Shown one piece after another: positions 15,077 to 46,600 of a DNA stretch of 64,000 nt; positions within the stretch are counted from its first letter, which is position 1; every line of letters begins with the position of its first letter. A program made the translations under genes and the position numbers. The notes under the pieces are model-generated. The model saw only the letters and a list, made by a program, of their open reading frames with translations. It searched no databases and had not been told where the DNA came from. The stretch comes from Escherichia coli (GTDB lineage: Bacteria; Pseudomonadota; Gammaproteobacteria; Enterobacterales; Enterobacteriaceae), in assembly GCF_003019035.1 (NCBI RefSeq), contig NZ_CP027447.1, one strand, 5' to 3'.

Positions 15077-15102
15077 GCCGGATGGATTAATCTCCATCCG
15101 GC
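15077..15102. terminator. Putative bidirectional hairpin terminator between the convergent transporter and hypT genes
   Basis: Perfect 9-bp inverted repeat GCCGGATGG / CCATCCGGC with an 8-nt loop in the 86-bp convergent gap. Confidence 0.45.
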
Positions 15103-15137
15103 GTTAATGTCAAAATTCCATGTTCTGCAGAATAATG

Positions 15138-16049
15138 TCAGCTAAGCACAATCTCCAGCTCGCGCAGTTCACGCCAGAAGCGTTCGGCAACGGGATTCAT
15201 GCGGGTATTCATCCGGTATGCGTAGGCCTGAATCGGGATCACCAGTTCGTCCCGATTCAGCACAACGAGCTGCCCGCTGCGAATTTCTTGTTGGATAGCG
15301 TACTCCGGCAGCCAGGCAATCCCACAGCCGTCGAGGGCAACCTGCTTTAAAAGCTCGCTCATCGAAGAGACAAAAAAGGTGCTGAAACTTAACTCACTGT
15401 GGCGCGTCAGGGTGCGATTAATCAATCGCCCCATGTAGGAGTTGCGGCTGTAATTCAGTAACGGAAAGTGTGGCTGCGCGAGGTTAAAAAGTGCTTCTCC
15501 GTGTTCGTCACTGGCGCAGACGGGGAACAATTGAGATTCAAATAAGCGAATGTGGTCAAATGGTGCTTCCAGCAAATCTTCGTCGTGAAAGGAAAAAATA
15601 CAGTCACTTTGCCCTTCACGCAGTTTATCGACCGCTTCATCGACATCAATGGCTTCAATCGCCCAGGTAAAGAGCGGCGGCATCTGGCTGATAATGGACG
15701 GTAACAGACCGAGGGAAAGAGAGTGTGCAGCGGCTATCTTGATTTTACGTTGCGCGTAATCGCTGCCGCCACGCAGCTCTGCCAGATTGCTTTCTAACTG
15801 TTGCAACAGATGGCGGATCTGCGAATGAAAGATTTTCCCTTGTTCCGAGAGTTGCAGCGGCGTCACCTGGCGGTTAAACAATTCAACGCCAATCGCCTGT
15901 TCCAGTGCACGGATGCGGCGGCTGAATGCCGGTTGCGAGACGTTGCGACTGACTGCCGCCTGGGAAAAGTTGCGGCATTTTTCCAAGGTCAGAAAATCAT
16001 AAAGCCATTTTGTTTCAATATTATGCAAAACCGCACCACAGCCATCCAT
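15138..16049 (-). CDS. hypT: LysR-family hypochlorite-responsive transcription factor HypT (YjiE)
   Basis: 303 aa, N-terminal LysR HTH (FLTLEKCRNFSQAAVSRNVSQPAFSRRIRALE); matches K-12 YjiE in sequence and in position next to iadA. Confidence 0.88.
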   Translation of the reverse strand: MDGCGAVLHNIETKWLYDFLTLEKCRNFSQAAVSRNVSQPAFSRRIRALEQAIGVELFNRQVTPLQLSEQGKIFHSQIRHLLQQLESNLAELRGGSDYAQRKIKIAAAHSLSLGLLPSIISQMPPLFTWAIEAIDVDEAVDKLREGQSDCIFSFHDEDLLEAPFDHIRLFESQLFPVCASDEHGEALFNLAQPHFPLLNYSRNSYMGRLINRTLTRHSELSFSTFFVSSMSELLKQVALDGCGIAWLPEYAIQQEIRSGQLVVLNRDELVIPIQAYAYRMNTRMNPVAERFWRELRELEIVLS

Positions 16050-16113
16050 TACGTTTTACTCTGTCAGCCGCCCTTGCGGGCATTCTACGTCCATTCGGGC
16101 GGCTGACAACCGT

Positions 16114-17286
16114 TTAAGCCGTTTCAAACGTTCCTTTCACGCAGGCTTTGCCGTCTTTGACCATCAGTTTGCCGCGAGCGTATACCTGCTCAATGCGCAA
16201 TTCTGGCGTCATGACCAGTAAGTCTGCGTCATTGCCTGGCAGAATTTCGCCTTTCCCGCTCAGGTTAAGGAAACCGGCTACGCTACTGGTGAGCGGGCGC
16301 AGGGCATCGCTGATACTGAAATCATAATCTTTGACCAGCACCTGCACGGTTTCCAGCAACGTTTCAAAACCGGCAACACCGATATGGGTTAAATTCCCTT
16401 CGTCATCGAAGAACGGCTGGCTACCGTTGCCGTCGGAGCTGAGGGTGACGCGTGCCAGCGGAATACCCGCCTGAACGGCGCGGGCAATACCTTCGGCAGG
16501 GGCGACCGGTTCGTCAATGCTGCTGGTGATGTCGATGGTGCCGCCTTTGCGCGCGAACTCCAGCGCCTGCTCAAACAACGGAACGTTGCGGTTAACGTGG
16601 GTCGGCAGCAGCTTGCTGATCGGCACATCGCAGTTTTCCAGCAGGTCATAGACAGGCTGTAACGCCTTTTTACTGTCGCCCATGTGGAACACGGTGACGC
16701 CAGGTTTACCGCCAAGCAAACCGCCAACGCGGGATTCCGCCGCCATATTAGCCAGGTGATAAACGTCCGGTGCGGCAGAACGGTGATCAGAGATGGCGCA
16801 TTTCACACCAATCACGCGATCGATAATCGCCACGTCTTTTTCCACGGAACCCGTAATAGTGCGGGAAGGGACATGATAAGCGCCGGTCAGCATCCAGGCG
16901 CTGATGCCTTCTTCATTGAGCGCACGGGTCTTGGCGAGCAGGGATTCCGGGTGGCGAGAGATAGAGTCGGTGCCCAGCAGACCAACCACTGACGTGACGC
17001 CCGCTTCCGTCAGGCGACTTAACGCCACTTCCGGCGTGCGCGTCGTGGGACCTGCTTCACCGCCACCGCCAATCAAATGAACGTGTTGATCAATAAAACC
17101 TGGGCAGAGGATCTGCCCGCGGAGATCGACAACCGTGCAGTCCGGTACAATGTCAGAAGGGATATTACTGGCAACGGCGATAATTTTGCCGTTAGCGACG
17201 AGGACATCGCAAACTCCCCGATCTTCCGGCGCATACAAATGCGCTCCCTGCAGCAGGGTAAAACCGGCTGCGGTATAATCAATCAT
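16114..17286 (-). CDS. iadA: Isoaspartyl dipeptidase
   Basis: 390 aa, amidohydrolase-fold metal ligands (FIDQHVHLIGGGGE); same length and neighbourhood as K-12 IadA. Confidence 0.88.
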   Translation of the reverse strand: MIDYTAAGFTLLQGAHLYAPEDRGVCDVLVANGKIIAVASNIPSDIVPDCTVVDLRGQILCPGFIDQHVHLIGGGGEAGPTTRTPEVALSRLTEAGVTSVVGLLGTDSISRHPESLLAKTRALNEEGISAWMLTGAYHVPSRTITGSVEKDVAIIDRVIGVKCAISDHRSAAPDVYHLANMAAESRVGGLLGGKPGVTVFHMGDSKKALQPVYDLLENCDVPISKLLPTHVNRNVPLFEQALEFARKGGTIDITSSIDEPVAPAEGIARAVQAGIPLARVTLSSDGNGSQPFFDDEGNLTHIGVAGFETLLETVQVLVKDYDFSISDALRPLTSSVAGFLNLSGKGEILPGNDADLLVMTPELRIEQVYARGKLMVKDGKACVKGTFETA

Positions 17287-17298
17287 GGTAACTCCTTG

Positions 17299-17760
17299 TT
17301 AAACAATAAGCTGCATAACCCAGATCGACAGCAATGCGTTAATCACGCAGACCGTAATGATATGCGGGTAATATTTGGCATTCACTTCGGCTGTCCCCAG
17401 GCAGCGACCGACATTTTGCACCGGGTTGCCCATTAAATACATCGCGGGCAGTAAAACGGTGACATCGTGACCGGTTAATGCGCCAGCGGTTGCCAGACTG
17501 GCGGCAACACCGACTGCGCCGCCCATACTCATTAATGCGGCTAAAAGGACGGTTGCCGCTTCACCGGGTAATCCCCACAGCGCCATTACGGGTTCACAGA
17601 TATGCCCCACCCAGTCGAGCAGGCCGGTAATTTTCAGCGCCTGAATGATGACAAACGCCATCACCACGTTTGGCAGCAGGTTGGTCGTGGCGATAGTAAA
17701 GCCACGGCGCGCGCCATCGATAAACATATCCATGACGTTTTTGCGGACCTGAGTTGTCAT
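17299..17760 (-). CDS. yjiG: Inner-membrane protein YjiG (nucleoside-recognition-type small membrane protein)
   Basis: 153-aa hydrophobic ORF; position and size match K-12 yjiG; stop overlaps the start of yjiH. Confidence 0.8.
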   Translation of the reverse strand: MTTQVRKNVMDMFIDGARRGFTIATTNLLPNVVMAFVIIQALKITGLLDWVGHICEPVMALWGLPGEAATVLLAALMSMGGAVGVAASLATAGALTGHDVTVLLPAMYLMGNPVQNVGRCLGTAEVNAKYYPHIITVCVINALLSIWVMQLIV

Positions 17761-18452
17761 GCTTGCGCTCCTTGCGTTGGGTTGCGACGTTCTTCGAAGT
17801 TAAGCCAGACGCGCAAAATGTTGGCTCCGACAAATTTAAACACCAGGATGACGGCTAAAGGTACGATTACGGACGTGCCCAGAAAGGCAAACACCGCGAC
17901 GCCGGAAGAGAAGTAGTTGGTGATGATGGCGCTACCGCTGGTTTGATATGCGGCGAATATCACTTTATCACGTTCGGTAATTTCCCCTTCCTGCGCCAGT
18001 TCTTTGGTCATACCTGCGGCGGCATCGGTGTTTTGCAGGTTAGCAATCAGCGCTAGTGAACAGATGCCTGGAATGCCCAACAACGGTTTTAGCACGGGCG
18101 TCATTAACTGCTGCGCGGCGCGCAATCCGCCAAGACCATCGGTAATCGAGATAATTCCCAGAGAGAGAATGACTGACGGTGCCAGCTCCAGCGCAAAGAG
18201 AAAGCCATCTTTAGCCCCCGCGCCACCCGCCCCGCGAAACGAGGTGGTGGCTCCGTTCGCACCAGGCAGTTGCCCAAACGATCCGTTCAGAACGGAAAAA
18301 TCAAAAACGCGCCACCAGCTGTCTGTTCCGGAAAAAACACCGGAAAAAAAGATTATGGTGAGAAAAAAAGCCAGATACCCTTTAATGCCCACTTTTTCTG
18401 TCGCCAGCTCCCCGGCTACAGCATCCCCTTGTTGTGTCATAACAATCCCCAT
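17757..18452 (-). CDS. yjiH: Inner-membrane protein YjiH
   Basis: 231-aa membrane protein upstream of and overlapping yjiG by 4 nt, as in K-12. Confidence 0.8.
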   Translation of the reverse strand: MGIVMTQQGDAVAGELATEKVGIKGYLAFFLTIIFFSGVFSGTDSWWRVFDFSVLNGSFGQLPGANGATTSFRGAGGAGAKDGFLFALELAPSVILSLGIISITDGLGGLRAAQQLMTPVLKPLLGIPGICSLALIANLQNTDAAAGMTKELAQEGEITERDKVIFAAYQTSGSAIITNYFSSGVAVFAFLGTSVIVPLAVILVFKFVGANILRVWLNFEERRNPTQGAQA

Positions 18453-18689
18453 TGTTTTTTTGTGTTTGTGTGTTGCTTGAGCCAGGAAAATTCCTGGAGC
18501 TGAAAAACCTTATCAGCCATGTGGGTATGGGGAAAATGCAAGTATGTTTCTGGCTATGCGTTTTTTGCATAGCGGAAAAATTACGCTATAGGGAAAAGGT
18601 TCTGCGCTGGATTGAGTTGCAGTAAATTCATAAACCCAGTGACAATGACATAAGTAAATAAAAACAGAAAATCCAGGGACGAAAACGAG

Positions 18690-19274
18690 ATGGCAAAGTA
18701 CAACGAAAAAGAGCTGGCGGATACGAGCAAGTTTTTAAGTTTTGTCCTCCGACACAAACCGGAGGCGATTGGTATCGTACTGGACCGTGAAGGATGGGCG
18801 GATATCGATAAGCTCATACTTTGTGCCCAAAAAGCGGGCAAGCGGTTAACCCGTGCATTGCTGGATACCGTTGTCGCCACCAGCGATAAAAAGCGTTTTA
18901 GTTATTCCAGTGATGGTAGGTGCATCCGCGCGGTTCAGGGGCATTCGACTTCGCAGGTCGCTATTTCCTTTGCCGAAAAAACACCGCCACAGTTTCTCTA
19001 CCACGGTACGGCAAGCCGTTTCCTTGACGAGATAAAAAAACAGGGGCTGATTGCAGGTGAGCGTCACTACGTACATCTCTCTGCTGATGAAGCAACGGCA
19101 CGCAAAGTGGGAGCAAGACACGGATCGCCGGTTATTTTAACCGTCAAAGCACAGGAAATGGCGAAACGAGGCCTCCCTTTCTGGCAAGCGGAAAACGGGG
19201 TCTGGCTGACATCAACGGTTGCTGTTGAGTTTCTTGAGTGGCCGTTCATGCCGGCTGGGTTACAAAAACAATAA
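18690..19274 (+). CDS. kptA: RNA 2'-phosphotransferase (Tpt1/KptA)
   Basis: N-terminus [43 protein letters not shown]... matches E. coli KptA; conserved RAVQGHS and HGT motifs. Confidence 0.88.
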
Positions 19275-19297
19275 ATTCAAGATATTGCAGGGGTTAT

Positions 19298-19327
19298 ATA
19301 GGACTGATAAGCGCAGCGGATCAGGCA
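19298..19327 (-). repeat. REP (repetitive extragenic palindromic) element, reverse orientation
   Basis: ATAGGACTGATAAGCGCAGCGGATCAGGCA resembles the reverse complement of the E. coli REP consensus (GCCTGATGCG...CTTATCAGGCCTAC). A separate perfect 10-bp-stem hairpin (AAGGATACCC/GGGTATCCTT) follows at about 19352-19379. Confidence 0.5.
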
Positions 19328-19394
19328 ATGTAGCGTTTGTTATCAGTCTGAAAGGATACCCTCGCACAAGGGTATCCTTAATAACCTGCTGAAA

Positions 19395-22300
19395 TTAAAG
19401 TGATTTACGGCAGGCGGTCAGTTGGGGGCTGGAATCAGCGTCGCTTCCGGTCATACCCGTTAGCATCTGCACATAGTAGTGCCGATTGTAATCATCAGAT
19501 TCACTTGTCCAGTAAGCACCTTGTGTAAATTGCGAATTACTGGAAAACGCTCCAACGTTCCCCCATTCACCATATAGCGATCCCTGCGTGCGTTGGTTTT
19601 CGCCAGACGTCAAATGTGTGATGGCAGGAAGATTATATCCATCATTTTTAGCATGACAGAGCGCATTGGCAGCTAGCCAGATATTGGTATGATTTCCATT
19701 ATTCACCCACCAGCCTTTCAGCTTAATTAAGGTCTGGTAGGTTGTACCTCCTTGTCGGGGAACAGCGCTTATTGTGACTGACGTTTGATCGCCGATATTT
19801 GCGAAAGAAACCTTACCTGAAGCATCGACCGACACCCAACTCTGTGAACTTGAAAACATATAATCATCAACGGTTTTACCCGCTTCAAAGTTATCATTGT
19901 TGAGTGTGTAATACGCTCCTGCAAAACCTTCGCTCGGGAATTTAGCCGTTGAGAAGGTATGGTTGTTTGCAGTGACATGACCGGACATTTCTTTTATCGA
20001 GCGGATGAGATTCAGCGATACGCTTAAGTTTGCCTGATGAACCCCGTTCAGCATGGGAATGAGGGTCGCTGTCCCCTCTTTTCCGCCAGTGACAGTCACG
20101 GTGTACTCGCCATAATTTCTCTGGCTGTAATCAATATCGCTCAACTTGAGAAAGTTCACAAAGGGGCCTGACTGGACAAATTCCAGATGATCAGACGTCA
20201 CTATCGGGTTACCGTACTTGTCTTGCAATGTTAGCGTAAGTTTTGCGCTCTGCTGGTAGTCAGCCTTCAGAGTGTCAACGTCGGATTTCAAAATTGACTT
20301 ACTTTCATCGGCCGTGCCGGCAACCAATGTAATGGTTGCGGATTGGTTGGCTGTACCAGGAACTTGCACATTGACCGTTAAGGTTTCTGCCAATGTACTG
20401 GTTATTGTCGCCGTGACTTGCCCGGACTGATCGGTACGCGTAGTTGGAATATTAACTACCGGGCTGCCTTTGGTGTCTAAGGCATAACTAACATCGACAC
20501 CTTCAACCGGGAATCCGTAATCATCTTCTACTCGTGAAGTGATGGTGCTGCTATCAACGCCGTCGGCGGTTATGGTGTCAGGGGAGGCCACGACGCTCAC
20601 AACATGTGCCGTTTTAGCATCTGCCTTAACCGCAACCGTTACCTGGCTCTGAACGGGAACATCTTTGCCCATTGTGGCCGTAACGGTATAGACATTCACT
20701 TTGTTACTGGTCAGCGTCACTTTGGCCTGACCAGACTGGTCAGTAAGGACTTCCCCTGTATTGCTTAGCGTTGCACCTTCAGGCGTTACGCTAAAGGTGA
20801 TAATTTGCCCAGGCATCAATTCATCCCGCGCATTTCTCGCCGTTGCGGTAAGCGTAATACCTTCACTGTTATGGACCGTGGTTTCTGGCTTCGATGATGT
20901 TAACTCGAGCTTGCCATTTGCCACATTCACGTCAACCTTACTACTACTGTTATTGTCCAGCGTTGCCGTCACCTGATAAACCCCAGGCTGGGTGCTGAGA
21001 AGGTTAACGTACGCGTAACCGTTATTATCGGTGTAAGCCGTATCGCCTATCGTAATGTTAGCTGTTGGCTGCGCACTTAATCTGACGCGTTGACCTGATA
21101 TTACATTGTTAAACGCGTCCTGGACGAGTATCCGTAGCGTGATGTTTTCGCCAACCGTTATCGTTTTTTCGGCTCCGGTTATACTTATTACCTTCGCCGA
21201 ACTTTCATCCGGGAGCACTGATAAACTAAACGTTTTATTATCGGAGGGCTGCGCTTTCCGGCTCACCACGACGTTATGTTGTCCGGCAATATTGCTGGTC
21301 ATTGTTACCGTCGCCTGACCCAGCGTATCGGTGGTGACTTCTGTTCCGCTTAGAGTGACATCGTTACTCTGGAAAGTGACCAGCTGGTCTTTAAGCGGAT
21401 TTTGGTAAGCGTCCAGGATCGTTGCAGTCAGGGTACTCCCCGTACTGTCACCCGCAACAATGGTATTTAATGAGGCAGTCAGCGGCTGGAGCTGCGCACT
21501 GTTTGTATCCCCAATAAAAGTGACTTGCTGATGAGCAACGGTGTTATTTCTGGTCAGCGTCGCCGTAACTGTAAACTCACCCGCTTTTGTGCCTCGCAAT
21601 GTAACCACGGCATCACCGTTTGCATCGGTGCGGGCGGTTTCACTACTTAGCGTGAAGTTCCCGGTCATGGAGGCTGGCAAGGTAAATTTCACATCCTCAT
21701 CCGGCAACGGGTGTCCATAAACATCTTTCACACTGGCTGTCAGGATAACGGTATTTGTATTGTTAGCGATCGCACTGCCCGACCCGGCATTTAAGGTCAT
21801 TACCGATTGTTCCCTGTTTGGGACCACGGTGATCGTGACCGACTGGTGAATATTTTTATCCGCCTCAAGCGAGGCATCGACGGAATAGCTACCAGCTTTT
21901 GAACTGGTCAGGTGCACTCGCACAATACCGGACTGGTCTGTTGTGGCGGTCGTGTTGTCCAGTTGCGAGCCACCAGGTGCCACAAAATTCACTTTCATAT
22001 CTTTTAACGGGTTGTTATGAAAGTCTGTGACGGTGGCGGTCAGAGTACTGCCCTGGCTGTTGCCAGCAATAATGGTATCTGGATCGGCAACCAGTTGTTT
22101 GAATTTTGGCGTACTCGAATCGCTAACGAATTTCGCAATTATCCGTTGTGAGAAACCATTTGGCAGCGTGGCACTAATCGTATTTTCTTCCGCAACCTGA
22201 CTTACCATGTTGATTGTGGCAACACCATATGCATCCGTATTTTGCTGCGGCGGTTCGACAAATTCAGCGCTTCCTTTTTCATTCTTAAAGGTGACCTGAT

Positions 22301-30525: not shown

Positions 30526-31677
30526 TTACAGCATCTCAATAAAGGCCGCGACACGGGTGCTGAGCTGCCCGATATCTGAGGTGGAGTAGTCTGTTTCAAT
30601 AGCGATATAAGGAATGTTGTGCTGATGACGCACATGACGTTTAATCGCCAGCGATTCCACCGCGTAGGTATGGCACGCCTGCAAAATCACATCAACTACG
30701 CCATCGACCTGATATTCTTCAACCATCTGGCTGAGCATTTGCAGGCGCTGATCGTTCGGCGAAACACAGGAGCAGCCAATCGCCAGATATTTATCCGCCA
30801 GCGCGTCGTAGACATCGCCCGTTTCTGCCACGCATTGCTCGGTCGCTTTCGCCCCGGTGCAGTTTTCATAACCGACAACCCAGCCGCCATTCTCTTCAAT
30901 CGCGCGCACCACTTTTTCTGCTGCGCCGCCAATCGGGCAGCCGGTGATTAAAATGCGCGGACGCGGGTCCAGTCGCTGGCCTTCTTCCCACTGCTGACGA
31001 ACGCGGGCGGTCATTGCATCCAGTTCATTGATCAACGCCTCTTTATCGAACCGGAAGGTTGCGCCGTAAACCACTTTCAGAATGTCGCTGCCGCTAAGCG
31101 CCGGAGGATTTAACTGCCCCAAATGATAAAAGTTGGCCAGTGCGCGACGTTCGCGGTTTTTCAGCACAATGGCATCGCGCAGAGCATCTTCGCTAATCTC
31201 GTGCCCAAAACGTTCTTCTACCGTTTTTTGCAAGCGCAGCATCTCGGCTTTCCATAACGCGCGTGAGGCATCGTCCTTAACGCTGTTTGGCAGTTGCATC
31301 ACATGAACGGGCTTAAATTCCGCCATGTATTCATACATTTTCTTTTTGCCGTCGCAGGTGGTTTCACCCACCACCAGATCGGAAAAGTAGAAGTAGGGGC
31401 ATTTATCGGTTTTGCCGAAGCCGTAGCTGCTTTTAATCAGCGGGCAGAGATTACGCGGCAGGTCTTTTTCCGCTTCTTCAATGGTTTCATCAGAGGTGGA
31501 ACAGAGTGAAACCACAACCGCACCGGCTGCCATTGGGATCTCTTGCGGCATAAAAGTACAGTAGGTACCAACCAGCGGAATGCCGCGCTCCTTGAGATCC
31601 ATGACGGTGAGAAAGCCTTTCTGGCGAGCTTCAGAGAACTGATCGAAAATGGCGGGTAGATCGGTGACAAGTGACAT
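30526..31677 (-). CDS. yjiM: 2-hydroxyglutaryl-CoA dehydratase D-component-like protein YjiM
   Basis: Matches K-12 YjiM from MSLVTDLPAIFDQF...; start set at that Met (the track ORF has a 7-codon extension); Cys-rich (CTFMPQ, GCPIGG, GCSCV) as expected for the Fe-S dehydratase family. Confidence 0.82.
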   Translation of the reverse strand: MSLVTDLPAIFDQFSEARQKGFLTVMDLKERGIPLVGTYCTFMPQEIPMAAGAVVVSLCSTSDETIEEAEKDLPRNLCPLIKSSYGFGKTDKCPYFYFSDLVVGETTCDGKKKMYEYMAEFKPVHVMQLPNSVKDDASRALWKAEMLRLQKTVEERFGHEISEDALRDAIVLKNRERRALANFYHLGQLNPPALSGSDILKVVYGATFRFDKEALINELDAMTARVRQQWEEGQRLDPRPRILITGCPIGGAAEKVVRAIEENGGWVVGYENCTGAKATEQCVAETGDVYDALADKYLAIGCSCVSPNDQRLQMLSQMVEEYQVDGVVDVILQACHTYAVESLAIKRHVRHQHNIPYIAIETDYSTSDIGQLSTRVAAFIEML

Positions 31678-31792
31678 GATTTTCCTTCCCCGTACCACGG
31701 GAGATAATGAAAAGAGGCCACATTATTACCATTCTTTTAGTGCGGTTTATTTGATCTCTCTCGCGGTTAGCCACTTAGTTTTTCATGGATTT

Positions 31793-33073
31793 CTAAAAAT
31801 TGCCGAGGGGGAACAAAGCCGGGAGCTGCGACAGCAAATACAAAATTAGCCCAATACAACCGCCAACTAGCGTACCGTTGACACGGATAAACTGCAGATC
31901 TTTGCCAATATTTAACTCGATTTGCCGCGACATATCCCGCGCATCCCAGCTTTTTACTGTATCGCTGATGTGGCGCGTCAGGAATGCGGAAAACTCAGGC
32001 GCGACGCGGTGCGCGGCTTGTTCCAGGTGACCATTTAACGACGCCCGCAAGGCATCATCGGCAATTAACGTTTCACCAAACCATTGACCCGCTCGTGCGA
32101 TACGTTCTTTCACACGAGAATCTTCACTGTTGATATCCACTTTCAGCCATTCCCGTAAATCCCCCCACAATTCACTGAGATAGCGATTAAAAGCTTCATC
32201 TTCTTTCAGATAGCTTTTTACGGCATCGGCTCGCGCTGCCATTTCCGGATCGTTTTTCAGCTTGTCGATCATGGCAAAGGTGGCGCGATCAAACGCATTG
32301 CGGATCTGATGCGCACGATCGCGACTAATATCATCAAGCAAAGAATTCACCGCGTCAGAAACCAACTCCGCGCTATGTTCGCCCAGCCATTCGGTGGGGA
32401 GAATTTTGGCTTTCAATGGATGCTCGCTCTCCAGCCAGCGAACAATTTGCTGGGCGATAAACTTGCGCGATTTATCGCGCTGGAGAAGGGCGATCAACTG
32501 TGCGATCAGCGTATCCAGCAGCACCTGATGACGATCGTTTTTGGTCATACTCTCCAGCATCAACGCACTGGTGCCGGAAAGATCGACCTTATCAATCGCC
32601 CGATGGACTGCGCGCTTAAGCAGGCGCTGAATACGCGCATCATCGGTCAGTTCAAGAAAACCACTCATGATCTGCAACAGATGCTGACCAACGCGGCGGG
32701 CGTTTTCTGGCTGACTAAACCAGTTGCCAATCAACAACGCCGGTTCGTGACGTCGAATCAATGCCACCAGCGATTGGGTATCGAGAAATTTTTCCTGCAC
32801 GAACTGACCGAGATTTTCGCCAATCCGGTCTTTATTACGCGGGATAATCGCCGTATGACGAGAAATGATCGGAATCGGCACGCGGCGAAATAGCGCCACC
32901 ACCGCAAACCAGTCCGCCAGCGCGCCGACCATCGCCGCTTCAGCAATCGCCTTCACGCCGCTCACCCAAAAATTGGGCGGCAAAAACAGCGTAACGACAA
33001 AGGTAGCAGCGGCGATAAGCAGTAAAGAGAGCGCCAACATTTTGGCGCGTCTGAGTTCAATGAGTTTATTCAT
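31793..33073 (-). CDS. yjiN: DUF445-family inner-membrane protein YjiN
   Basis: 426 aa, N-terminal TM segment then a long helical soluble region; position and size as K-12 yjiN. Confidence 0.8.
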
Positions 33074-33113
33074 AACGTTAAGAATAGAGCCTGACGGCAG
33101 GATCGCGCAAAAA

Positions 33114-34346
33114 TCACCGCTCCTCCGCCAGCTCGGCAGCCTGATGCTGGCGCACGCGATTGAGCAATCCCGCCAGGGTGAAAACGACGATAACGCCCGC
33201 TAAAACGGCTAACAGATGAAACGGCAAGCGACCGCCGTTAAACCACAGCCAGCGGCCGATTTCGACTGAGACAGACATCACCATCAGGATCACCATATTT
33301 AGCGATGCGGAGACGGTCCCTTTCGGTAAGTTATTGGAAAACAGCGTAAAGCGGAATAAGGTCGGGAAAATCAAACCAATCCCGAAAGCATACAGACTGG
33401 TGCCCAGCACCGACCACAGCCAGACGTGCGGCGACAGCAGATTGCCGATAATCAACAGCGAGAGGCCGACCAGTTGAAGGGGTACGGCACGCCAGATAAA
33501 CCGCGGTTCGGTCGGATCTTTAACGAAACGCGCCACGATGGCATTCGCAACAATCACCGCGCCGAACACCGGAACCTGTGTCCAGGCGAACTGCGAAGTT
33601 GTTAAGCCGCCTGCATCGATAAGGATCACCGGCGAGACAGCCACCCAGCTCATCATCGGGATATAGCTTAAAGAGATGGTTGCTGCGCCAAAGAGGAACA
33701 GCCGATTGCAAAAGACATTACGAAAATCGCGCAAGACGCTTTTGGCGCTAAACGGAACCGCGCCGCGCTTCACCGTCTCTGGCATCGCCAACAGTAAGCC
33801 AACAAATGAGATAAAACCCATAACCGCAATGATGGCAAAAAGGACTTTCCAGTGCATAAAGTGCATCAGAGCTGCGCCGGAAAGCGGGCCGATAATCGGC
33901 GCAATCAGTACGATGGAGGTGATAATCGCCATCAACTTGATCCCTTTTGTCTGTCCGAACGCCTCCTGCACCGTGACATAACCAACGGTGGCAATAAAAC
34001 AGATACTGGTGCCCTGAATGGCACGCGCGATAAGAAACTGTGTCATAGACGTTGTGAACATTGTCGCGGCGCAGGCAAGGGTAAAAATTAGCGCCCCGGT
34101 AATCAGCACCGGCCTGCGGCCAATTCTGTCGGAAAGTGGCCCCAATAGCCACTGTAACGCCATACCGCCAGCGAGATAGAGACTGACGGCAGCAGGGGCC
34201 AGACTGACATCGGCATTAAAATCACGTACCACATTAATAATCCCTGGCTGGATTAGATCCGTCGACAGGTACGCGGCAAAGTCATACAAAATCAACGCCA
34301 TCGGGAAAAACAGCGTGGCGGCATGGCGGGCAAAAAAACGTGGCAT
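33114..34346 (-). CDS. mdtM: Multidrug efflux MFS transporter MdtM (YjiO)
   Basis: Matches K-12 MdtM from [36 protein letters not shown]...; start set at that Met (410 aa). Confidence 0.85.
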
Positions 34347-34813
34347 AAAAAACAACTCCTTGTCCGGAGAACCCCAATGGGGAAAACGAAATTCAATACC
34401 GTCGGTAATGACGAAAGGCAGGCGAGAAGGACAAATGTACTGAATTTCATGTAATCAACCACACTGCCTGTGAACACACAGACAGAGAAATACCTTCTGA
34501 CTCCAGGTCAGAATGTATAACGATTACAAATAGTCATCAGCACATTACACCTCTTGAATTGATGGATTGCATAGAAAATATACACCTTAAGTGTAATTAA
34601 AATTTGCGGTTAATCAAAAGAGCGCGGTGGAAAGGGGAATATCTGCCGGGTACAGGACATGTAAAAACACGAGCCTGTTTCCGGAAAAATGTATCGTTTG
34701 CAGAGGAACAAAAATAGCCTGGAAAGCACCTCGGGGAACGAGAAATTGCCGGGTGAGAATTGTTTTGTTAGTCGCTACAGTCGGGCCATCTTATCTACAG
34801 GTGACGGATCGCC

Positions 34814-35770
34814 ATGACAAACTTCACGACCAGTACGCCGCATGACGCATTATTTAAATCCTTTCTCACGCACCCTGACACCGCGCGGGATTTTATGGAG
34901 ATCCACTTACCCAAAGATTTACGTGAACTGTGCGATCTCGACAGCTTAAAACTGGAATACGCCAGCTTTGTCGATGAAAAATTGCGGGCGCTACATTCCG
35001 ATATTCTGTGGTCGGTAAAGACCCGCGAAGGAGATGGCTATATTTATGTGGTGATTGAACATCAGAGCCGCGAGGATATCCATATGGCCTTTCGCCTGAT
35101 GCGATATTCCATGGCGGTGATGCAGCGCCATATCGAGCGTGATAAACGCCGGCCGCTACCGCTGGTCATCCCGATGCTGTTTTATCACGGTAGCCGTAGT
35201 CCTTACCCCTGGTCTTTGTGCTGGCTGGATGAATTTGCCGACCCGGCTACCGCACGGAAGCTTTATACCGCAGCGTTCCCGCTGGTGGATGTCACTGTCG
35301 TGCCAGACGACGAGATTGTGCAGCATCGCAGAGTCGCCCTGCTGGAGTTGATCCAAAAGCATATTCGCCAGCGCGATCTAATGGGGCTTATTGATCAACT
35401 GGCAGTATTACTGGTTACAGGGTGCGCTAATGACAGCCAGATAACCGCGCTGTTAAATTACATTTTACTGACTGGCGATGAAGCGCGTTTTAATGAGTTT
35501 ATCAGCGAACTTATCCGTCGAATGCCACAACACAGGGAGCGAATAATGACGATTGCAGAGCGAATTCATAATGATGGATGGCTGTTGGGAAGGGAGAGGG
35601 GGAGGAAAGAAGGGAAAGAAGAAGGGGAAAAGAGCCTCCTCCGATTGTTGTTGCAGAATGGGGCGGATCCTGAATGGATACAACGATATACCGGACTTTC
35701 GGCAGAGCAAATGCAGGCATTAGATCAGCCCTTGCCTGAAAGCAAGCGCGATCCATGGATCGAGTACTAA
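34814..35770 (+). CDS. rpnD: Rpn-family recombination-promoting nuclease (YhgA-like, PD-(D/E)xK), RpnD/YjiP-YjiQ equivalent, apparently intact
   Basis: 318 aa; N-terminal [24 protein letters not shown] and [11 protein letters not shown] motifs typical of YhgA-like transposase_31 proteins; Gly/Glu/Lys-rich stretch ([16 protein letters not shown]) near the C-terminus. Position corresponds to K-12 yjiP/yjiQ. Confidence 0.75.
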
Positions 35771-35797
35771 TCAGAGGCCGATGGCAAACGCAAAGCT

Positions 35798-35826
35798 GCC
35801 TGATGCGCTACGCTTATCAGGTCTAC
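35798..35826 (+). repeat. REP element
   Basis: GCCTGATGCGCTACGCTTATCAGGTCTAC is a close match to the E. coli REP consensus, lying in the rpnD-yjiR convergent gap. Confidence 0.7.
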
Positions 35827-35861
35827 ATAACCCATTAAATATATTGAATTTTAAAGATTTT

Positions 35862-35895
35862 GTAGACCTGGTAAGGTGTTCACATGGCATCCGGC
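35862..35895 (-). repeat. Degenerate REP element in inverted orientation (BIME-like pair with 35798-35826)
   Basis: Reverse complement reads GCCGGATGCCATGTGAACACCTTACCAGGTCTAC, a degenerate REP; the two REPs face each other. Confidence 0.5.
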
Positions 35896-36012
35896 ATGAA
35901 CGAAGCGCATTTTGCCTAAGCCATGCTGGAACGTGGAGATGACCCTGCAAAGATAAAACGAGTCACACGCTATTCGTGAGAGGAAATCAGGGGGCTCGCC
36001 ACTATTTCGAAT

Positions 36013-37425
36013 TCATTCCATTGCCCGATACACGGCTTCGCCAATTTGCTTCAGTGCTTCGCGATAGGTTTCGCTGAGCGGCAAAGCGCAGTTGATGCGC
36101 AGACAATTACGGTATTTGCCGGAAGCTGAGAAAATCGAGCCTGCCGCCACCTGGATTTTCATGCGGTATAGCTGCCGCGCAACGCAAACCATATCGACCT
36201 GTTCAGGCAATTCGATCCACAGTAAAAATCCGCCTTTCGGGCGCGTAATACAGATTTCGCAGGGAAAATATTCCCGTATCCAGCAGGTATAAAGCGCCAA
36301 ATTGCGCTGATAGATCTGCCGCATCCGCCGGATATGGCGATGATAGTGACCTTCCAGCACAAACGTTGCCGCCGCCATTTGCGTGGACGGCACATTAAAG
36401 CTGCTGATGGCATATTTCATATGCAGCAGTTTATCGTGATAGCGCCCCGGTGCGACCCAACCCACGCGCAGGCCTGGAGCAATACTTTTACTGAACGAGC
36501 TGCACAACAGCACTCGCCCGTCGATATCCCAGGAATGAATGGTCCGCGGGCGCGGATACTCCGTCGCCAGTTCGCCGTAGACATCATCTTCAAAAATCAC
36601 AATATCATGACGCTGAGCGAGAGAGAGAACGGCCCGTTTGCGCGCGTCCGGCATAATAAATCCCAGCGGATTATTACAGTTTGGCACCAGAATGATGCCT
36701 TTAATCGGCCACTGCTCCAGCGCCAGTTCCAGCGCTTCAACGCTGATGCCTGTTTCTGGATCGGTGGGGATTTCAATCACTTTCACGCCCATGCCGCGCA
36801 GCATCTGCATCGAACCGTAATAACAGGGGGATTCGACCGCGACAATATCGCCCGGTTTACACACTGCCATCAACGCCAGCGACATCGAGTTATGGCAGCC
36901 GCTGGTGATGATGATGTCATCGGCGGTGACCACCGAGCCGCTGTCGAGCATCAGGCGGGCAATCTGCTCGCGCAATACCCGCTGGCCGGCTAACAAGTCA
37001 TAACCGAGAACGGTTTGCAGATTATGCTGCACCACCCGGCTTAGCTCCCGCCACAGCGGTTTCAGGCTGGGCGTTTCGACATCCGGCGTGCTTTTACTTA
37101 ACGGAACAATGGAACTGTCGCTATGCGCCTCCAGCATATCCAGCACCTGATCCCACTGGGTAATTTCCACCGGGCGCTGCACCGGACGCGTCATCGGCGG
37201 TACTGGCGGCTGGGCTTTACGTTGTGCGACAAAATAACCCGAACGCGGCTGCGGAGTGATGAGCTTCATCGTCTCCAGCGTCTGGTACGCCTGCTGCACG
37301 GTGCTAATACTGACGCCGTGCTCCTGACTCAAGCTGCGCACCGACGGCAATTTCTCCCCGTGACGATACAGCCCTTGCTCAATCCGCTCTGCAAGCAGAG
37401 TCGCCAGATGTTGATAACGCGTCAT
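36013..37425 (-). CDS. yjiR: MocR-type transcriptional regulator (GntR HTH fused to PLP aminotransferase-like domain) YjiR
   Basis: 470 aa; N-terminal GntR HTH (LPSVRSLSQEHGVSISTVQQAY) followed by a fold-type I aminotransferase-like domain; same length and position as K-12 yjiR. Confidence 0.85.
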   Translation of the reverse strand: MTRYQHLATLLAERIEQGLYRHGEKLPSVRSLSQEHGVSISTVQQAYQTLETMKLITPQPRSGYFVAQRKAQPPVPPMTRPVQRPVEITQWDQVLDMLEAHSDSSIVPLSKSTPDVETPSLKPLWRELSRVVQHNLQTVLGYDLLAGQRVLREQIARLMLDSGSVVTADDIIITSGCHNSMSLALMAVCKPGDIVAVESPCYYGSMQMLRGMGVKVIEIPTDPETGISVEALELALEQWPIKGIILVPNCNNPLGFIMPDARKRAVLSLAQRHDIVIFEDDVYGELATEYPRPRTIHSWDIDGRVLLCSSFSKSIAPGLRVGWVAPGRYHDKLLHMKYAISSFNVPSTQMAAATFVLEGHYHRHIRRMRQIYQRNLALYTCWIREYFPCEICITRPKGGFLLWIELPEQVDMVCVARQLYRMKIQVAAGSIFSASGKYRNCLRINCALPLSETYREALKQIGEAVYRAME

Positions 37426-37601
37426 GCTGTATTCCTTATTTGGACCATACAGAGGGAAAAACCGGTACAGATGAGGCTAAAAAACCGGATGCAGATGCTG
37501 TTTTAACCTGTCTGTATGTTAAATAAAAGTAATGTTTGAATCTGTATTGTGAACTGCCAAAAGGCGGATGATGAAGCCTCTGAAAGATGAGGAGGCAGCA
37601 G

Positions 37602-37766
37602 ATGGAATTTCACGAAAACAAAGCTAAAGCACCGTTTATTGGACTTGTGCAACTCTGGCAGGCAGTGAGGACCTGGTGGCTGAAAAAGCAGACCCGGCGC
37701 GTGTTACAGCAGATGAGTGATGAGCGGTTGAGGGATATTGGGTTACGCAGGGAGGATGTGGAGTGA
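37602..37766 (+). CDS. yjiS: DUF1127 small protein YjiS
   Basis: 54-codon ORF below the track's size cutoff (MEFHENKAKAPFIGLVQLWQAVRTWWLKKQTRRVLQQMSDERLRDIGLRREDVE); ATG at 37602, TGA at 37764-37766; divergent from yjiR. Confidence 0.7.
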   Translation: MEFHENKAKAPFIGLVQLWQAVRTWWLKKQTRRVLQQMSDERLRDIGLRREDVE

Positions 37767-37807
37767 TGGGGCAATTTCCCTTCCCGTATGGGGAAGGGGA
37801 GAGAAAC

Positions 37808-38360: not shown

Positions 38361-41300
38361 TTAGTTTAAAACACTCATATGATGTTCTTTAAAATTCTCT
38401 GCCTGTGCCAGCACTCCCATATAAACATCATCATTCGCTACTGGCGGGAACTTATGCTTGTGTAGAAGAAGAATAAGTTCAACTTTTAGTTTCGCTTTAA
38501 TATCATCGCGCTTACTCCAGTCAGGATATTTCGATGTGTTGTCAACCACGCTTTTCATCTCTTTTGCCAGTGACAGCATTTTTTCATCGTCATAGGTGAA
38601 CTGATATTTATCGCGCATATGAGCAAGAATGTCGAAAAACGCTTTTTCTTCAATATCAATACCTAAATCGGCCCATGTGCCCATTTCGGTTTTAATATCA
38701 TAGATAATATCGGTCATTTCCTGACTGAATGTATCGAATTCTTCACCGTTGAGTACATCATCTTCTCGCCGCTCATTATAACGATCTATAATCGCCTGGA
38801 AGCGGCGGGTGAAGTTAATCCCTTGCAACTGGTTCACTTTCTTGAAGTCGCTGATCGCTTTTTCCAGTAATTTTTGTAATAACTGGATCTTTGTTGCCGG
38901 AAGTTTGATCTTGTTAATTCGCGCCAGATAATCTTCGTCAAAAATATCGATGGATTCCGCTTTTTTATCGCCAAGAAAATAAATTTCTTCTACGCCATCA
39001 GCTTTTAGCGCTTCTGCAATCATTTCACGAACGCGTGCATTCATCTGGGTGACATCCGGTGCGTCACCTTTCGTCAGTTTGAAAACAATTGAACGAACAG
39101 CAAGATAATAGTGAATATGATCACGTTCTGTCTGTGATAGTGCTTCACTGCCGCAGCAGACGTCGTAGGCGGCTTTCATGCGTTTAACCAGTCCCATAAA
39201 ACGACGTTCAACTTTCTGGGTACGCAGAACAAATTCCGCCGCGCGGTTGAGGCAGGATAATTGCGCTTGTGGCTCACCACTAAAATAATCCCGACTGTCA
39301 AATTCGTAAAAGACTTGCCCCAACAAATCGAGATGGTTTTTAACTTCTATTACCGATTGCTGAATATCTTCAAAGTTGGTGGCATCAATGCGGGAATACA
39401 TTGCCAGTGCCTGGTTCATCTGACTTTTAATGCCGATGTAGTCCACCACTAACCCTTTACTTTTGCCTTCCAGTTTACGGTTAACGCGAGAAATGGTCTG
39501 GATAAGATTATGTTTTTGTAAGGGTTTATCAATATAGATGGTATCCAGTTCCGGGACGTCGAAACCAGTCAGCCACATATCAACAACAATGGCAATTTTG
39601 AAATTCGATTTAGCGTTTTTGAACTGCTTATCCAGCTCTTTACGATATTCTTTTGTGCCCAGTAAATCATAAAGCGCCTCGTCGTCATCTTTACCGCGCG
39701 TCATGACCATCTTCACCATTTCTGAAGGCGGTAACTCTTTCTGCTCCTGTTCCGTCAGGACGACGCCATCGGGGGCTTGCTTCACTTCAAACCAGGTAGG
39801 GCGAATAGCTTTAAGCTGGCGGTAGAAATCCCAGGCAATTTCACGGCTGGCACAAACAAACATGGCTTTGCCTTTTACGGTGGAACCTTCGGCTACGCGT
39901 TTTTCATAATGTTTAGCAAAATCTTCCGCGAGGGCTTTTAACCGATCTTCATCACCCAGTACCGCATTCATGGTTGCGGTGGCTTTTTTGCTTTCGTCGA
40001 TTTGCCACTCATTGGTGCCTGCGTTTGCGCACTCTTCGTAATACTTTTCGACTTCTTCCAGTTTGCTGGAGTCCAGGATCACTTTAGCCGCACGGCCTTC
40101 GTACACGATGCGTACAGTGATTTCATCCTGAACGGATTCGGTCATGGTGTAACTGTCGATCACCTCACCGAAGACATCGAGCGTCGCGTCAATCGGTGTG
40201 CCGGTAAAGCCAACATAGGTGGCGTTTGGCAGTGAATCGTGCAGGTATTTCGCAAAGCCATAAGTTTTGCGCACTTTTCCGCTTTCTTTATCGACGATGA
40301 CTTTCTGGTCGAGGTTAACCTGGCTGCGATGTGCTTCGTCTGAGATGCAAATGATATTGCTGCGTTCAGAAAGGAGTTCGGTGTCTTCGGTGAATTTATG
40401 GATCGTTGTCAGGAATACACCGCCACTATTGCGTCCCGCCAGTTGATTACGCAAATCTTCACGGCTGATAACAGGAACGATGGTGTCGTCGCCAATGTAA
40501 TTTTTGGCGTTGCACATTTGCGCAGAAAGCTGATCGTCCAGATCGGTGCGGTCGGTGATCAAAACAATGGTCGGGCTGGCAAACTCCACGCTCTTCATCA
40601 AAAGACGCGTTAAAAATTGCATGGTGTAACTTTTGCCACAGCCCGTTGCGCCAAAGTAGGTGCCGCCTTTACCGTTACCGAAAGGTTTACGCGCTTGCTT
40701 GATGCTGTAATAGAGTTTGCGGGCGGCATAGTACTGCGGATATCGGCAGCAAATTTTTACTTCGTGCTTAGCTTTATCCGGGAAGCAGATAAAGTTTTTA
40801 ATCACATCCAGCAGACGTACCGGATGAAACAGCCCCTGAATCATTGAGTGCAATGACGGAATTCCGTCCTGTTCACGGTTTTCATTACCGGTGACTTTGC
40901 GCCATGAGTAAAAATATTCATAGGGCGCAAACAGGTTGCCCATCCGGTTATTAACGCCATCGCTAATAATGCAGAGCGCGTTGTAGATAAACAGTTGCGG
41001 AATATCCCGGCGGTAGCGTTTACAGAGCTGCTTCCAGGCATCACCTATACTGGCTTCCTGCTCGCGCACCGCGCTTTTAAATTCAAAGACGACCAATGGC
41101 AGACCATTGATATAGAGAATGCCGTCAGGAATACGAGTCTGATTATCTTTGCCGGAGATTTTAAGCTGGTTAACAATCTTAATCCGGTTAAGCGGCGGAT
41201 TAATATAGGAGGGCGGGAGTTCTGCCGCCTGTTGCAACGGGACATCTTCGGCGTCAAATATCTGGCGCAGTGCGGCAGGTAGATGCCGGGTGTCGAGCAA

Positions 41301-41624
41301 TTCAATATAGAGATCTTTTTGTTGCCGATCGTCGCGTTTGAACAGAAAACCATTTGCCAGCCAGCGACAAAATGTTTTGTTGCTTTCATAAAGATCGGAG
41401 GCCGGAAGCGTGGTGAACTGTTTGATCAGTCGCTGAATCTCTTCTTCAGTAATGCCATCAGGCTGGTAGCGTGCCGCTAAATAATGACGGAGATCGTCTT
41501 CGATAATGACCTGATCGAGACTTGAACGAGGGACATTATCGCCGATCAGGTGTTGATATCCCTGATCCTGTAATAGTTCAATGATCGCTTGTTCTAATTT
41601 TGCTTCACTGAAAGAGAGACTCAT
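38361..41624 (-). CDS. hsdR: Type I restriction enzyme R subunit (HsdR), not EcoKI-type
   Basis: About 1087 aa; conserved nuclease motif (VVFEFKS), DEAD/DEAH helicase Walker A (GATGCGKSYTM) and helicase motifs. Start set at the ATG (MSLSFSEAK...) preceded by GGAG; the track ORF begins at an upstream TTG. The sequence and length differ from K-12 EcoKI HsdR. Confidence 0.88.
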   Translation of the reverse strand: MSLSFSEAKLEQAIIELLQDQGYQHLIGDNVPRSSLDQVIIEDDLRHYLAARYQPDGITEEEIQRLIKQFTTLPASDLYESNKTFCRWLANGFLFKRDDRQQKDLYIELLDTRHLPAALRQIFDAEDVPLQQAAELPPSYINPPLNRIKIVNQLKISGKDNQTRIPDGILYINGLPLVVFEFKSAVREQEASIGDAWKQLCKRYRRDIPQLFIYNALCIISDGVNNRMGNLFAPYEYFYSWRKVTGNENREQDGIPSLHSMIQGLFHPVRLLDVIKNFICFPDKAKHEVKICCRYPQYYAARKLYYSIKQARKPFGNGKGGTYFGATGCGKSYTMQFLTRLLMKSVEFASPTIVLITDRTDLDDQLSAQMCNAKNYIGDDTIVPVISREDLRNQLAGRNSGGVFLTTIHKFTEDTELLSERSNIICISDEAHRSQVNLDQKVIVDKESGKVRKTYGFAKYLHDSLPNATYVGFTGTPIDATLDVFGEVIDSYTMTESVQDEITVRIVYEGRAAKVILDSSKLEEVEKYYEECANAGTNEWQIDESKKATATMNAVLGDEDRLKALAEDFAKHYEKRVAEGSTVKGKAMFVCASREIAWDFYRQLKAIRPTWFEVKQAPDGVVLTEQEQKELPPSEMVKMVMTRGKDDDEALYDLLGTKEYRKELDKQFKNAKSNFKIAIVVDMWLTGFDVPELDTIYIDKPLQKHNLIQTISRVNRKLEGKSKGLVVDYIGIKSQMNQALAMYSRIDATNFEDIQQSVIEVKNHLDLLGQVFYEFDSRDYFSGEPQAQLSCLNRAAEFVLRTQKVERRFMGLVKRMKAAYDVCCGSEALSQTERDHIHYYLAVRSIVFKLTKGDAPDVTQMNARVREMIAEALKADGVEEIYFLGDKKAESIDIFDEDYLARINKIKLPATKIQLLQKLLEKAISDFKKVNQLQGINFTRRFQAIIDRYNERREDDVLNGEEFDTFSQEMTDIIYDIKTEMGTWADLGIDIEEKAFFDILAHMRDKYQFTYDDEKMLSLAKEMKSVVDNTSKYPDWSKRDDIKAKLKVELILLLHKHKFPPVANDDVYMGVLAQAENFKEHHMSVLN

Positions 41625-41690
41625 ATCGCGCTCCAACCCTGGCTAATTTCTGGTAAGCATTCCCGTATCAGTAGAAAACCTTACCAGAAA

Positions 41691-41710
41691 GCCCCTGATT
41701 TTACAGGGGC
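41691..41710 (-). terminator. Hairpin immediately downstream of hsdS (possible attenuator/terminator before hsdR)
   Basis: 7-bp perfect stem GCCCCTG/CAGGGGC with a 6-nt loop, about 8 nt after the hsdS stop, followed by T-rich sequence on the minus strand; an adjacent 10-bp inverted repeat (TTCTGGTAAG ... CTTACCAGAA) lies in the hsdR leader. Confidence 0.35.
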
Positions 41711-41718
41711 AAAATGCG

Positions 41719-44722: not shown

Positions 44723-44785
44723 GATGAACTCTGTTCAGATAAATTGGGTCGCTATTGTAATGGTAGAGACGGCAGATTTCGCCCT

Positions 44786-46277: not shown

Positions 46278-46567
46278 AACATAAACGAGGGACCTCCTCT
46301 ACACTCGATGTGCAGCATGAGGCCGAACTGAAGGCGCTGGCGAATAAATCCGACGAAGATATTGATTACAGTGATATCCCACCTTCCAGCGATGAGCAAT
46401 GGTCTAACGCAGAACGCGGTAAGTTTTATCGGCCATTGAAAACTCAGGCCTCGGTGCGTATTGATTCTGATGTGATGGAATGGTTGAAGCGACCAGGTAA
46501 AGGCTATCAAACTCGCCTGAACGCAATTTTACGTGAAGCGATGCTGCGCGATCAGAACAAAAAATAA
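46265..46567 (+). CDS. BrnA-like antitoxin (CopG/RHH-related, COG3514-type), apparently intact
   Basis: 100 aa; C-terminal GKFYRPLKTQASVRIDSDVMEWLKRPGKGYQTRLNAILREAMLRDQ matches the conserved BrnA antitoxin signature (GYQTRINAILR); overlaps the 3' end of the toxin remnant. Confidence 0.6.
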   Translation: MSMVKHKRGTSSTLDVQHEAELKALANKSDEDIDYSDIPPSSDEQWSNAERGKFYRPLKTQASVRIDSDVMEWLKRPGKGYQTRLNAILREAMLRDQNKK

Positions 46568-46589
46568 TTCAGGCCGCCACATGGCGGCC
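46559..46589 (-). terminator. Putative rho-independent terminator of yjiA
   Basis: Perfect 7-bp stem GGCCGCC/GGCGGCC, followed on the minus strand by TGAATTATTTTTT, just downstream of the yjiA stop. Confidence 0.5.
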
Positions 46590-46600
46590 ATCATCCAAAA

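Follow-up and report, generated by a model that had tools for sequence, protein, structure and literature searches.

Are the palindromic repeats beside strain-variable genes in this part of the Escherichia coli chromosome markers of acquired DNA, agents of its acquisition, or mere neighbours of it? The question is raised by a stretch of 64,000 nucleotides (RefSeq assembly GCF_003019035.1, contig NZ_CP027447.1; hereafter the window) that covers the kptA-to-yjiR area and the immigration control region (ICR), a region among the most variable parts of the chromosome in E. coli (PMC12707154). A first-pass annotation of the window had reported sequences resembling repetitive extragenic palindromes (REPs) at 19298-19327, between kptA and an adhesin gene (iatD), and, as an inverted pair, at 35798-35826 and 35862-35895, between rpnD and yjiR, together with a perfect hairpin at 19352-19379. 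It held REPs to be ordinary features of E. coli that lie, in this case, at the boundaries of variable genes, where they could act in recombination or transcript stability.

All these elements are present where they had been placed. The explanation that best accounts for the whole, to which we assign a probability of about 85%, is that they represent two decayed copies of BIME-1 (bacterial interspersed mosaic element 1), hereafter copy A (kptA/iatD) and copy B (rpnD/yjiR), and one locus-specific hairpin, located at convergent 3' ends, and that their association with variable DNA is mostly passive. A BIME-1 is composed of two REP units, y and z1, which are separated by a conserved long linker, L, often carrying a site for the integration host factor (IHF), and it occurs as a single copy (PMC3333891). 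Its size is about 140 bp (PMC1187871), and the tetranucleotide GTAG/CTAC is conserved at the foot of the REP stem (PMC3333891).

Two decayed BIME-1 elements

A search of the 64 kb for the consensus REP cores, allowing up to 3 mismatches, returned REP-like sites at 19298-19312 (-), 35812-35826 (+) and 35862-35876 (-), plus a marginal fourth match at 61600. Taken alone, searches with such 15-16-nt cores are not significant (3 matches versus 1.1 expected, with 10 of 100 shuffled sequences reaching 3). We therefore used a profile hidden Markov model built from seven BIME-1 copies found at unrelated loci in other strains (gloC-aspC, gyrB-yidB, lafA-fliD, fdnI-yddM, yaeF-nlpE, sorE-pepE and rlmC-artJ; model length 152), with which the window was searched by nhmmer, all filters off. 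This profile matched both sites. On the minus strand, 35913-35773 is matched over the full length, at 109.5 bits (E=4.5e-33; positions 3-143 of the model); on the plus strand, 19251-19352 scores 71.5 bits (E=2.3e-21; positions 22-144), and the y unit is interrupted in this alignment by a gap of 20 nt. There was no third significant match to the profile in the window. A search with REP consensus models, which the first-pass annotation had proposed as a check, thus bears out its view that these are ordinary E. coli repeats.

Both copies align unit by unit with all seven independent BIME-1 copies, and these alignments, along with the profile coverage, reveal in each of them the single y unit and the inverse z1 unit around a long linker that define a BIME-1. 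Such elements are IHF-binding REP pairs, and they also go by the names RIP and RIB. Both elements are hence BIME-1 copies, and both are decayed. Their dispersal agrees with this assignment. Of 5,426 complete E. coli genomes (the set used for all genome counts below), 5,425 have matches to the 120-nt kptA/iatD spacer, with a median of 12 places in each, which makes it part of a dispersed repeat, and the canonical allele of copy B is found at 39 or more places per genome; on these figures, both are high-copy dispersed repeats, as REPs are. Rfam contains no REP family, and no repeat_region is among the RefSeq features listed for the corresponding stretch of K-12.

Copy A (19243-19351, plus strand) has the order y - L - z1 - flank and is truncated, deletions having reduced it to 109 bp: its y unit is 20 nt short, and some 12 nt of the outer flank seen in the family are gone. 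The y-unit remnant (19245-19263, +; TTCATGCCGG / CTGGGTTAC) carries the 20-nt deletion internally and has TTAC instead of CTAC; the linker (19264-19297, +) contains the kptA stop codon (19272-19274) and an IHF-like site; and the z1 unit (19298-19327, +; ATAGGACTGATAAGCGCAGCGGATCAGGCA), in which GTAG is changed to ATAG, folds at -12.8 kcal/mol (z -2.8). Next comes an outer flank motif (19328-19351, +; ATGTAGCGTTTGTTATCAGTCTGA) that is conserved across the family and also follows z1 in the gloC-aspC, lafA-fliD, fdnI-yddM, sorE-pepE and rlmC-artJ copies. The REP noted between kptA and the adhesin gene is therefore real, except that it is not a lone unit: it is the z1 part of a whole, decayed BIME-1. 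The nearest paralogue of copy A, the K-12 gloC-aspC BIME, is 85% identical over 75 bp and, unlike copy A, has an intact y unit. Both base changes, ATAG in z1 and TTAC in y, are present in five of five aligned iatD+ strains. As for the IHF-like site (19275-19287; ATTCAAGATATTG), it differs from WATCAANNNNTTR by one mismatch and is a sequence pattern only; the linker of copy B has two mismatches to the IHF consensus, and the pattern does not discriminate in the window, where it is not enriched (64 occurrences versus 71 expected).

Copy B (35773-35913, minus strand) is a full-length element of 141 bp (138 bp in the canonical allele), with the order flank - y - L - z1 - flank, and lies wholly in the intergenic spacer between rpnD and yjiR. 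Its z1 unit (35798-35826, +; GCCTGATGCGCTACGCTTATCAGGTCTAC) keeps CTAC, has a single mismatch to the consensus and folds at -11.5 kcal/mol (z -2.0). The linker (35827-35861, -) gives a sub-threshold match to the Rfam family ES036/CssrF. The y unit (35862-35896, +; GTAGACCTGGTAAGGTGTTCACATGGCATCCGGCA) keeps GTAG and is off the consensus at about 7 of 35 positions. What had been described as an inverted pair thus amounts to a full BIME-1, albeit one whose y unit is so badly decayed that it forms no stable hairpin by itself (-4.0 kcal/mol, z +1.05). For a 111-nt stretch of copy B, the folding energies are -37.4 kcal/mol (z -4.7) and -36.1 kcal/mol (z -4.2), and the predicted structures overall lie between -36 and -42 kcal/mol, with z values from about -4.2 down to -4.9.

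In summary, the 30-40-nt imperfect palindrome that characterizes a REP is found in both z1 units, whereas the y unit is truncated in copy A and does not fold alone in copy B; copy B retains both tetranucleotides (CTAC in z1, GTAG in y) and copy A neither. The two elements resemble published BIME-1 elements in the y - L - z1 order, the flank motifs, the presence of one copy per locus and the location in a spacer between convergent genes, and copy A does so as well in being present or absent depending on the strain (PMC3333891, PMC1187871). They depart from them in that copy A is truncated, has ATAG for GTAG and is not strictly extragenic, being partly in the kptA frame, and in that copy B has a y stem that no longer folds and a linker that is off consensus, as reflected by its sub-threshold ES036 score.

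The left border of the iatD block

When the window was compared with K-12 by blastn, 15134-19241 was 98% identical, 24868-26928 was 81% identical, 26929-29511 had no match and 29512-37771 was 95.9% identical. Homology to K-12 thus stops at 19241, at the edge of the truncated outer flank of copy A, and copy A belongs to a strain-variable block of 10.3 kb (19242-29511) that also comprises the hairpin, iatD, a divergent yjiJ-yjiK allele and a pentapeptide-repeat gene. In K-12, kptA is followed by 12 bp and then yjiJ, with no BIME, and about 3,900 other E. coli genomes share this arrangement.

The same contrast holds across the species. The BIME-plus-hairpin segment was found in 639 genomes, the kptA/iatD junction in 623 and the iatD/yjiJ junction in 634, so that the block is present in about 12% of genomes, and these matching counts indicate that copy A is tightly linked to the cargo; in about 3,946 genomes, the match breaks off at the joint (query positions 92-95). 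According to the first-pass annotation, identical repeats in strains devoid of the adhesin gene would have been uninformative about acquisition. Strains without iatD turn out to have no repeat at kptA, so that copy A is linked to the cargo by that test, too. At the kptA/iatD junction the window is 100% identical to strain AR_0077.

Three other members of the genus, E. whittamii, Escherichia sp. E1V33 and Escherichia sp. MOD1-EC7003, have the K-12-type joint and no BIME. At the 3' end of yjiJ, the identity of the window to each of K-12, E. whittamii and E1V33 is about 82%, whereas K-12 is 92-94% identical to the latter two. Given the K-12-type joint in these three Escherichia and the divergent yjiJ allele, the block is the derived state, and it was probably imported from a more distant lineage. 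The yjiJ-yjiK allele at 24868-26928 diverges beyond the variation seen genus-wide, which suggests that it either came from outside Escherichia or represents a polymorphism of great age.

The position of the joint accounts for a peculiarity of kptA (18690-19274, +), which encodes 194 residues in the window versus 184 in K-12. Since the block was joined inside the outer flank of copy A, directly after codon W184, kptA reads 10 codons into the damaged y unit, and the y remnant and part of the linker therefore lie inside the last 10 codons of the gene. In O157:H7 and UTME-3, TAG stands where the window has TGG, so that there is no extension and the same segment is extragenic. As these other iatD+ strains stop at that codon, the extension can be regarded as incidental.

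An older repeat in the rpnD-yjiR spacer

Copy B has a different history. It is located at the same site in K-12, with 94% identity, and is covered over at least 80% of its length in 3,506 of the 5,426 genomes (65%). To judge by this distribution, copy B is ancestral, an old resident of the rpnD-yjiR spacer. The proposal that REPs lie at the boundaries of variable genes consequently applies to copy A, where K-12 homology ends, and does not extend to copy B, which is uninformative as a marker of acquisition. Nor are the other junctions in the 19298-35895 range marked by REPs: no BIME is found at 24868, 26928 or 29512, and no REP at either edge of the pentapeptide-repeat insertion (26929-29511).

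The core of copy B (35827-35896) exists as two deeply divergent alleles at the rpnD-yjiR site, a decayed one in the window, K-12, ST131 and O157:H7, and a near-consensus one in strains E143 and KKo003. The differences between the alleles are limited to the repeat core, and the flanks are mosaic. This two-allele pattern fits ectopic gene conversion between BIME-1 copies. A shift in the density of single-nucleotide polymorphisms relative to K-12 was also looked for at copy B, and none was found; a dip at 35550-35650 corresponds to a 36-nt indel in rpnD.

Two minority arrangements of the spacer were examined. In the KKo003 type (421 genomes), DUF262/GmrSD defence genes take the place of yjiR-yjiS, mdtM is missing as well, and homology as delimited by megablast reaches as far as the outer BIME end. 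At the level of single bases, the joint consists of a deletion of 24 nt that directly adjoins this end, then a 12-nt island, ACGTGGCGATGA, which is a retained piece of the yjiR-side spacer, and only then the new DNA (L003 6262-6290). The apparent ending of homology exactly at the BIME outer end in these 421 genomes is weakened accordingly. A joint inside the BIME had been considered too, as the foot of z1 is where identity to K-12 declines from some 95% to 60-80%. This candidate was rejected because E143 combines the canonical core with a normal yjiR flank, which means that the step in identity reflects the two BIME alleles and not a joint. The G749 type carries a deletion (L004 6112-6125) that begins 1 nt past the rpnD stop codon, at the inner end of the BIME, extends 1.1 kb into yjiR and shows a 3-nt microhomology, AAT.

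The hairpin adjacent to copy A

The hairpin at 19352-19379 (minus strand) is perfect, as had been noted, and its stem measures 11 bp rather than 10, closed by a 6-nt loop. It is located 15 nt downstream of the iatD stop codon (19395-19397), and it is highly stable (-17.3 kcal/mol on the plus strand and -20.6 kcal/mol on the minus strand, with z -4.4 and -4.9; none of 200 shuffled sequences was as stable). The hairpin is specific to the kptA/iatD locus and lies outside the repeat: matches to paralogues end at query positions 75-79, which shows that it is not part of the BIME. A similar arrangement is found at gloC-aspC in K-12, where z1 and a flank ending in GTCATCAGTCT are at once followed by a hairpin placed after the stop codon of the convergent gene, aspC; the two hairpins are, however, unrelated in sequence.

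With its perfect 11-bp stem, its short loop and its position 15 nt past a stop codon, the element looks like a terminator or a 3'-end hairpin, except that both strands lack a U-tract (the minus strand has the tail TCAGACTG, the plus strand AATAACCT). Among five iatD+ strains, which diverge by about 8%, the stem is invariant and the loop is variable. Perfect stems of at least 10 bp are in excess in the window (6 versus 0.43 expected), and three of the six, at 15077, 19352 and 61588, lie between convergent gene ends.

Passive neighbours or sources of variation

Both BIMEs are located between convergent gene pairs, kptA/iatD and rpnD/yjiR, and this position is enough to explain their nearness to cassette borders: convergent 3' ends are the places where REPs and terminators usually gather, since insertions there spare genes. 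Copy A is a part of the derived 10.3-kb iatD haplotype, whose left joint falls in the BIME outer flank. Other cassettes carry a 3' hairpin or REP of their own beside the stop codon of a conserved gene (mrr-yjiA, nhaC/hypT), and the fact that cassettes bring such elements with them supports the passive interpretation. As parts of 3' untranslated regions, the stable structures would stop 3'-5' exonucleases and curb read-through from one convergent gene into the other; IHF may bind to the L linker, and gyrase binding is possible. An effect on translation is not expected, we infer, since the z1 hairpins start 26 and 28 nt past the stop codons and a REP must be within 15 nt of the stop codon to act on translation, according to a rule that PMC12306157 cites. 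Both copies are probably immobile relics, as judged from the GTAG-to-ATAG change in copy A and the decayed y stem in copy B, which affect features needed by the transposase. Nor do they have the make-up of a TnpAREP/REPtron substrate, which combines an intact GTAG with a mismatch in the stem and a neighbouring tnpAREP gene: GTAG is lost from copy A, and the annotation of AR_0077 shows neither tnpAREP nor an IS200-like gene over the 67 kb that surround the locus.

Some observations weigh against this explanation. The hairpin is not followed by a U-tract, as the G+C-rich stem-loop of a rho-independent terminator is, and was not called by a consensus terminator scan. The invariance of its stem is weak evidence of constraint, about 1.8 changes being expected (P about 0.16 for none). 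The functional statements made above are all inference from knowledge of the family. Lastly, several structural junctions are at or close to BIME-1 ends, which a purely passive view does not predict.

These junctions lead to the opposite explanation, that BIMEs actively generate variation, their ends or hairpins being preferred break or joint sites for cassettes such as the iatD block and the alternative ICR contents. There would be several routes to this: cleavage by the REP transposase, insertion sequences (ISs) that target REPs, replication slippage induced by hairpins, or recombination in which the 140-bp repeat acts as portable homology. There is precedent, since REPs are IS targets (PMC1525189), TnpAREP cleaves at and near BIMEs (PMC3333891), and BIME-1 elements, whose presence varies among isolates, are enriched in strain-specific loops of K-12, as PMC1187871 relays from Bachellier et al. 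1997. The iatD block, whose joint is inside the outer flank of copy A, does resemble the strain-specific loops of MOSAIC (PMC1187871) in that a BIME-1 lies within the loop or on its border and another strain lacks the loop; it differs from them in being 10.3 kb long and carrying an adhesin gene, when those loops consist mainly of the BIME itself. The megablast boundary of the KKo003 type, the start of the G749 deletion and the conversion-like alleles of copy B, with a tract limited to the repeat, may be read in the same way, the former two as independent events.

We nevertheless consider active generation unlikely. Comparison with K-12 defines 11 breakpoint ends in the window (15134, 19241, 24868, 26928, 29512, 37771, 37829, 38277, 46601, 50154 and 56068), and only one of them, 19241, adjoins a BIME. 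When read by base, the KKo003 joint is separated from the BIME end by the deletion and the island described above; the canonical allele of E143, linked to yjiR, shows that the divergence step within the BIME is not a cassette joint; and the G749 deletion shows an ordinary 3-nt microhomology. Moreover, no IS or REP-transposase gene is annotated nearby, copy A has no GTAG, and in a hypervariable region (PMC12707154) some breakpoint is expected close to a repeat by chance. The support for BIME-1 ends as preferred joints is therefore anecdotal, and part of it dissolved on close reading.

Instead of being passive structures of 3' untranslated regions, the elements might give rise to functional small RNAs akin to ES036/CssrF or naRNA, which is very improbable. 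In favour of such a role, PMC4550694 reports that about 80% of E. coli REPs are transcribed, canonical BIME-1 y units give partial naRNA4 matches, and the copy B linker scores 35.2 bits on ES036 (RF02751). This score is below the gathering threshold of the family, 37.6 bits. The orthologue of copy A in O158:H23 scores 28.4 bits, copy A itself gives no match in the window at E<=1, and canonical BIME-1 linkers elsewhere reach 53, 44.6 and 40.2 bits; to judge by these scores, ES036 in effect models the L linker of BIME-1, of which every genome has dozens of copies. In addition, promoter signals do not go beyond chance. Finally, that the similarity to REPs should be due to chance palindromes, as the non-significant core searches and the unfolded y unit of copy B might suggest, is hardly conceivable given profile E values of 1e-21 to 1e-33, which already refute it, the 85% identity over 75 bp between copy A and an unlinked K-12 BIME, and the conservation of unit order and flank motifs.

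Two decayed BIME-1 copies and a locus-specific hairpin, mostly passive in their closeness to variable DNA, thus remain the preferred explanation. It is unlikely that either copy caused the variation.

Other features of the window

The genes referred to above are arranged as follows. Downstream of kptA, iatD (19395-24635, -) encodes the inverse-autotransporter adhesin IatD of PMC6714894; yjiJ and a yjiK-like gene lie in 24868-26928; the pentapeptide-repeat gene (27200-29173, -; 657 aa), which is not in K-12, is located between yjiK and ytiA; and ytiA, yjiL, yjiM, yjiN and mdtM occupy the interval between it and rpnD (34814-35770, +; stop codon 35768-35770), which faces yjiR (36013-37425, -; stop codon at 36013). 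The genes rpnD, yjiR and yjiS have been described as conserved framework genes of the ICR (PMC4498929), and a newer review takes yjiN and yjiA as its anchors (PMC12707154).

The rpnD gene is intact in the window (318 aa) and a pseudogene in K-12. Over its whole length, it is 92-96% identical to K-12, a value below that of the neighbouring genes, and its 3' part (35580-35620) carries a 36-nt insertion relative to K-12. In the stretch with the pentapeptide-repeat insertion (26929-29511), a hairpin is found at 27107-27140, and a short copy of the K-12 yjiK-ytiA spacer and of the ytiA 3' end, AATGAATTCTTAACGCGG, at about 27008-27025.

Palindromes were also observed at other borders. Between nhaC and hypT, a perfect 10-bp hairpin (15077-15102; GCCGGATGGATTAATCTCCATCCGGC) lies about 30 bp outside the start of K-12 homology at 15134; it is another 3' hairpin on the cassette side, where the ibeA (GimA) island has its border. 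The yjiA stop codon is the exact point from which homology continues at the distal ICR border; next to this codon, the window has a plain hairpin (46560-46600; GGCCGCCACATGGCGGCC) after a BrnT/BrnA toxin-antitoxin pair, and K-12 has a single y-type REP after mrr at the same border (L017 14863-14908). The marginal core match at 61600 falls in a perfect 13-bp palindrome (61588-61618; TGTGTAGGTCGCACCTTATGCGACCTACACA) with GTAGG/CCTAC feet, located between the convergent genes lgoD and opgB. It gives a marginal match to the BIME-1 profile (E=0.2), K-12 has REP-like matches in the same spacer, and it may be a palindromic unit of a different type.

The restriction cluster and ICR of AR_0077 are 5.4 kb shorter than those of the window. 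In the window, the large open reading frames of the restriction cluster (38361-45952) are intact (1091, 475, 539 and 388 aa); in the counterpart of AR_0077, a strain otherwise identical at the junctions tested, the type I R and M genes are truncated.

Implications

The literature already documents both the variable presence of BIME-1 elements among strains and their enrichment in strain-specific loops, and our finding is in this respect known in kind and ordinary. It sharpens the annotation, in that the kptA/iatD element is a whole BIME-1; this copy shows precisely where the derived 10.3-kb iatD haplotype begins on its left side and explains the 194-residue variant of KptA. If BIMEs did generate the variation, BIME-1 would be an organiser of island borders and would provide a handle on the exchange of defence-island and adhesin cassettes. 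On the passive interpretation that we favour, the presence of REPs near cassette borders in this region is largely a by-product of location, REPs and borders alike being situated at convergent 3' ends.

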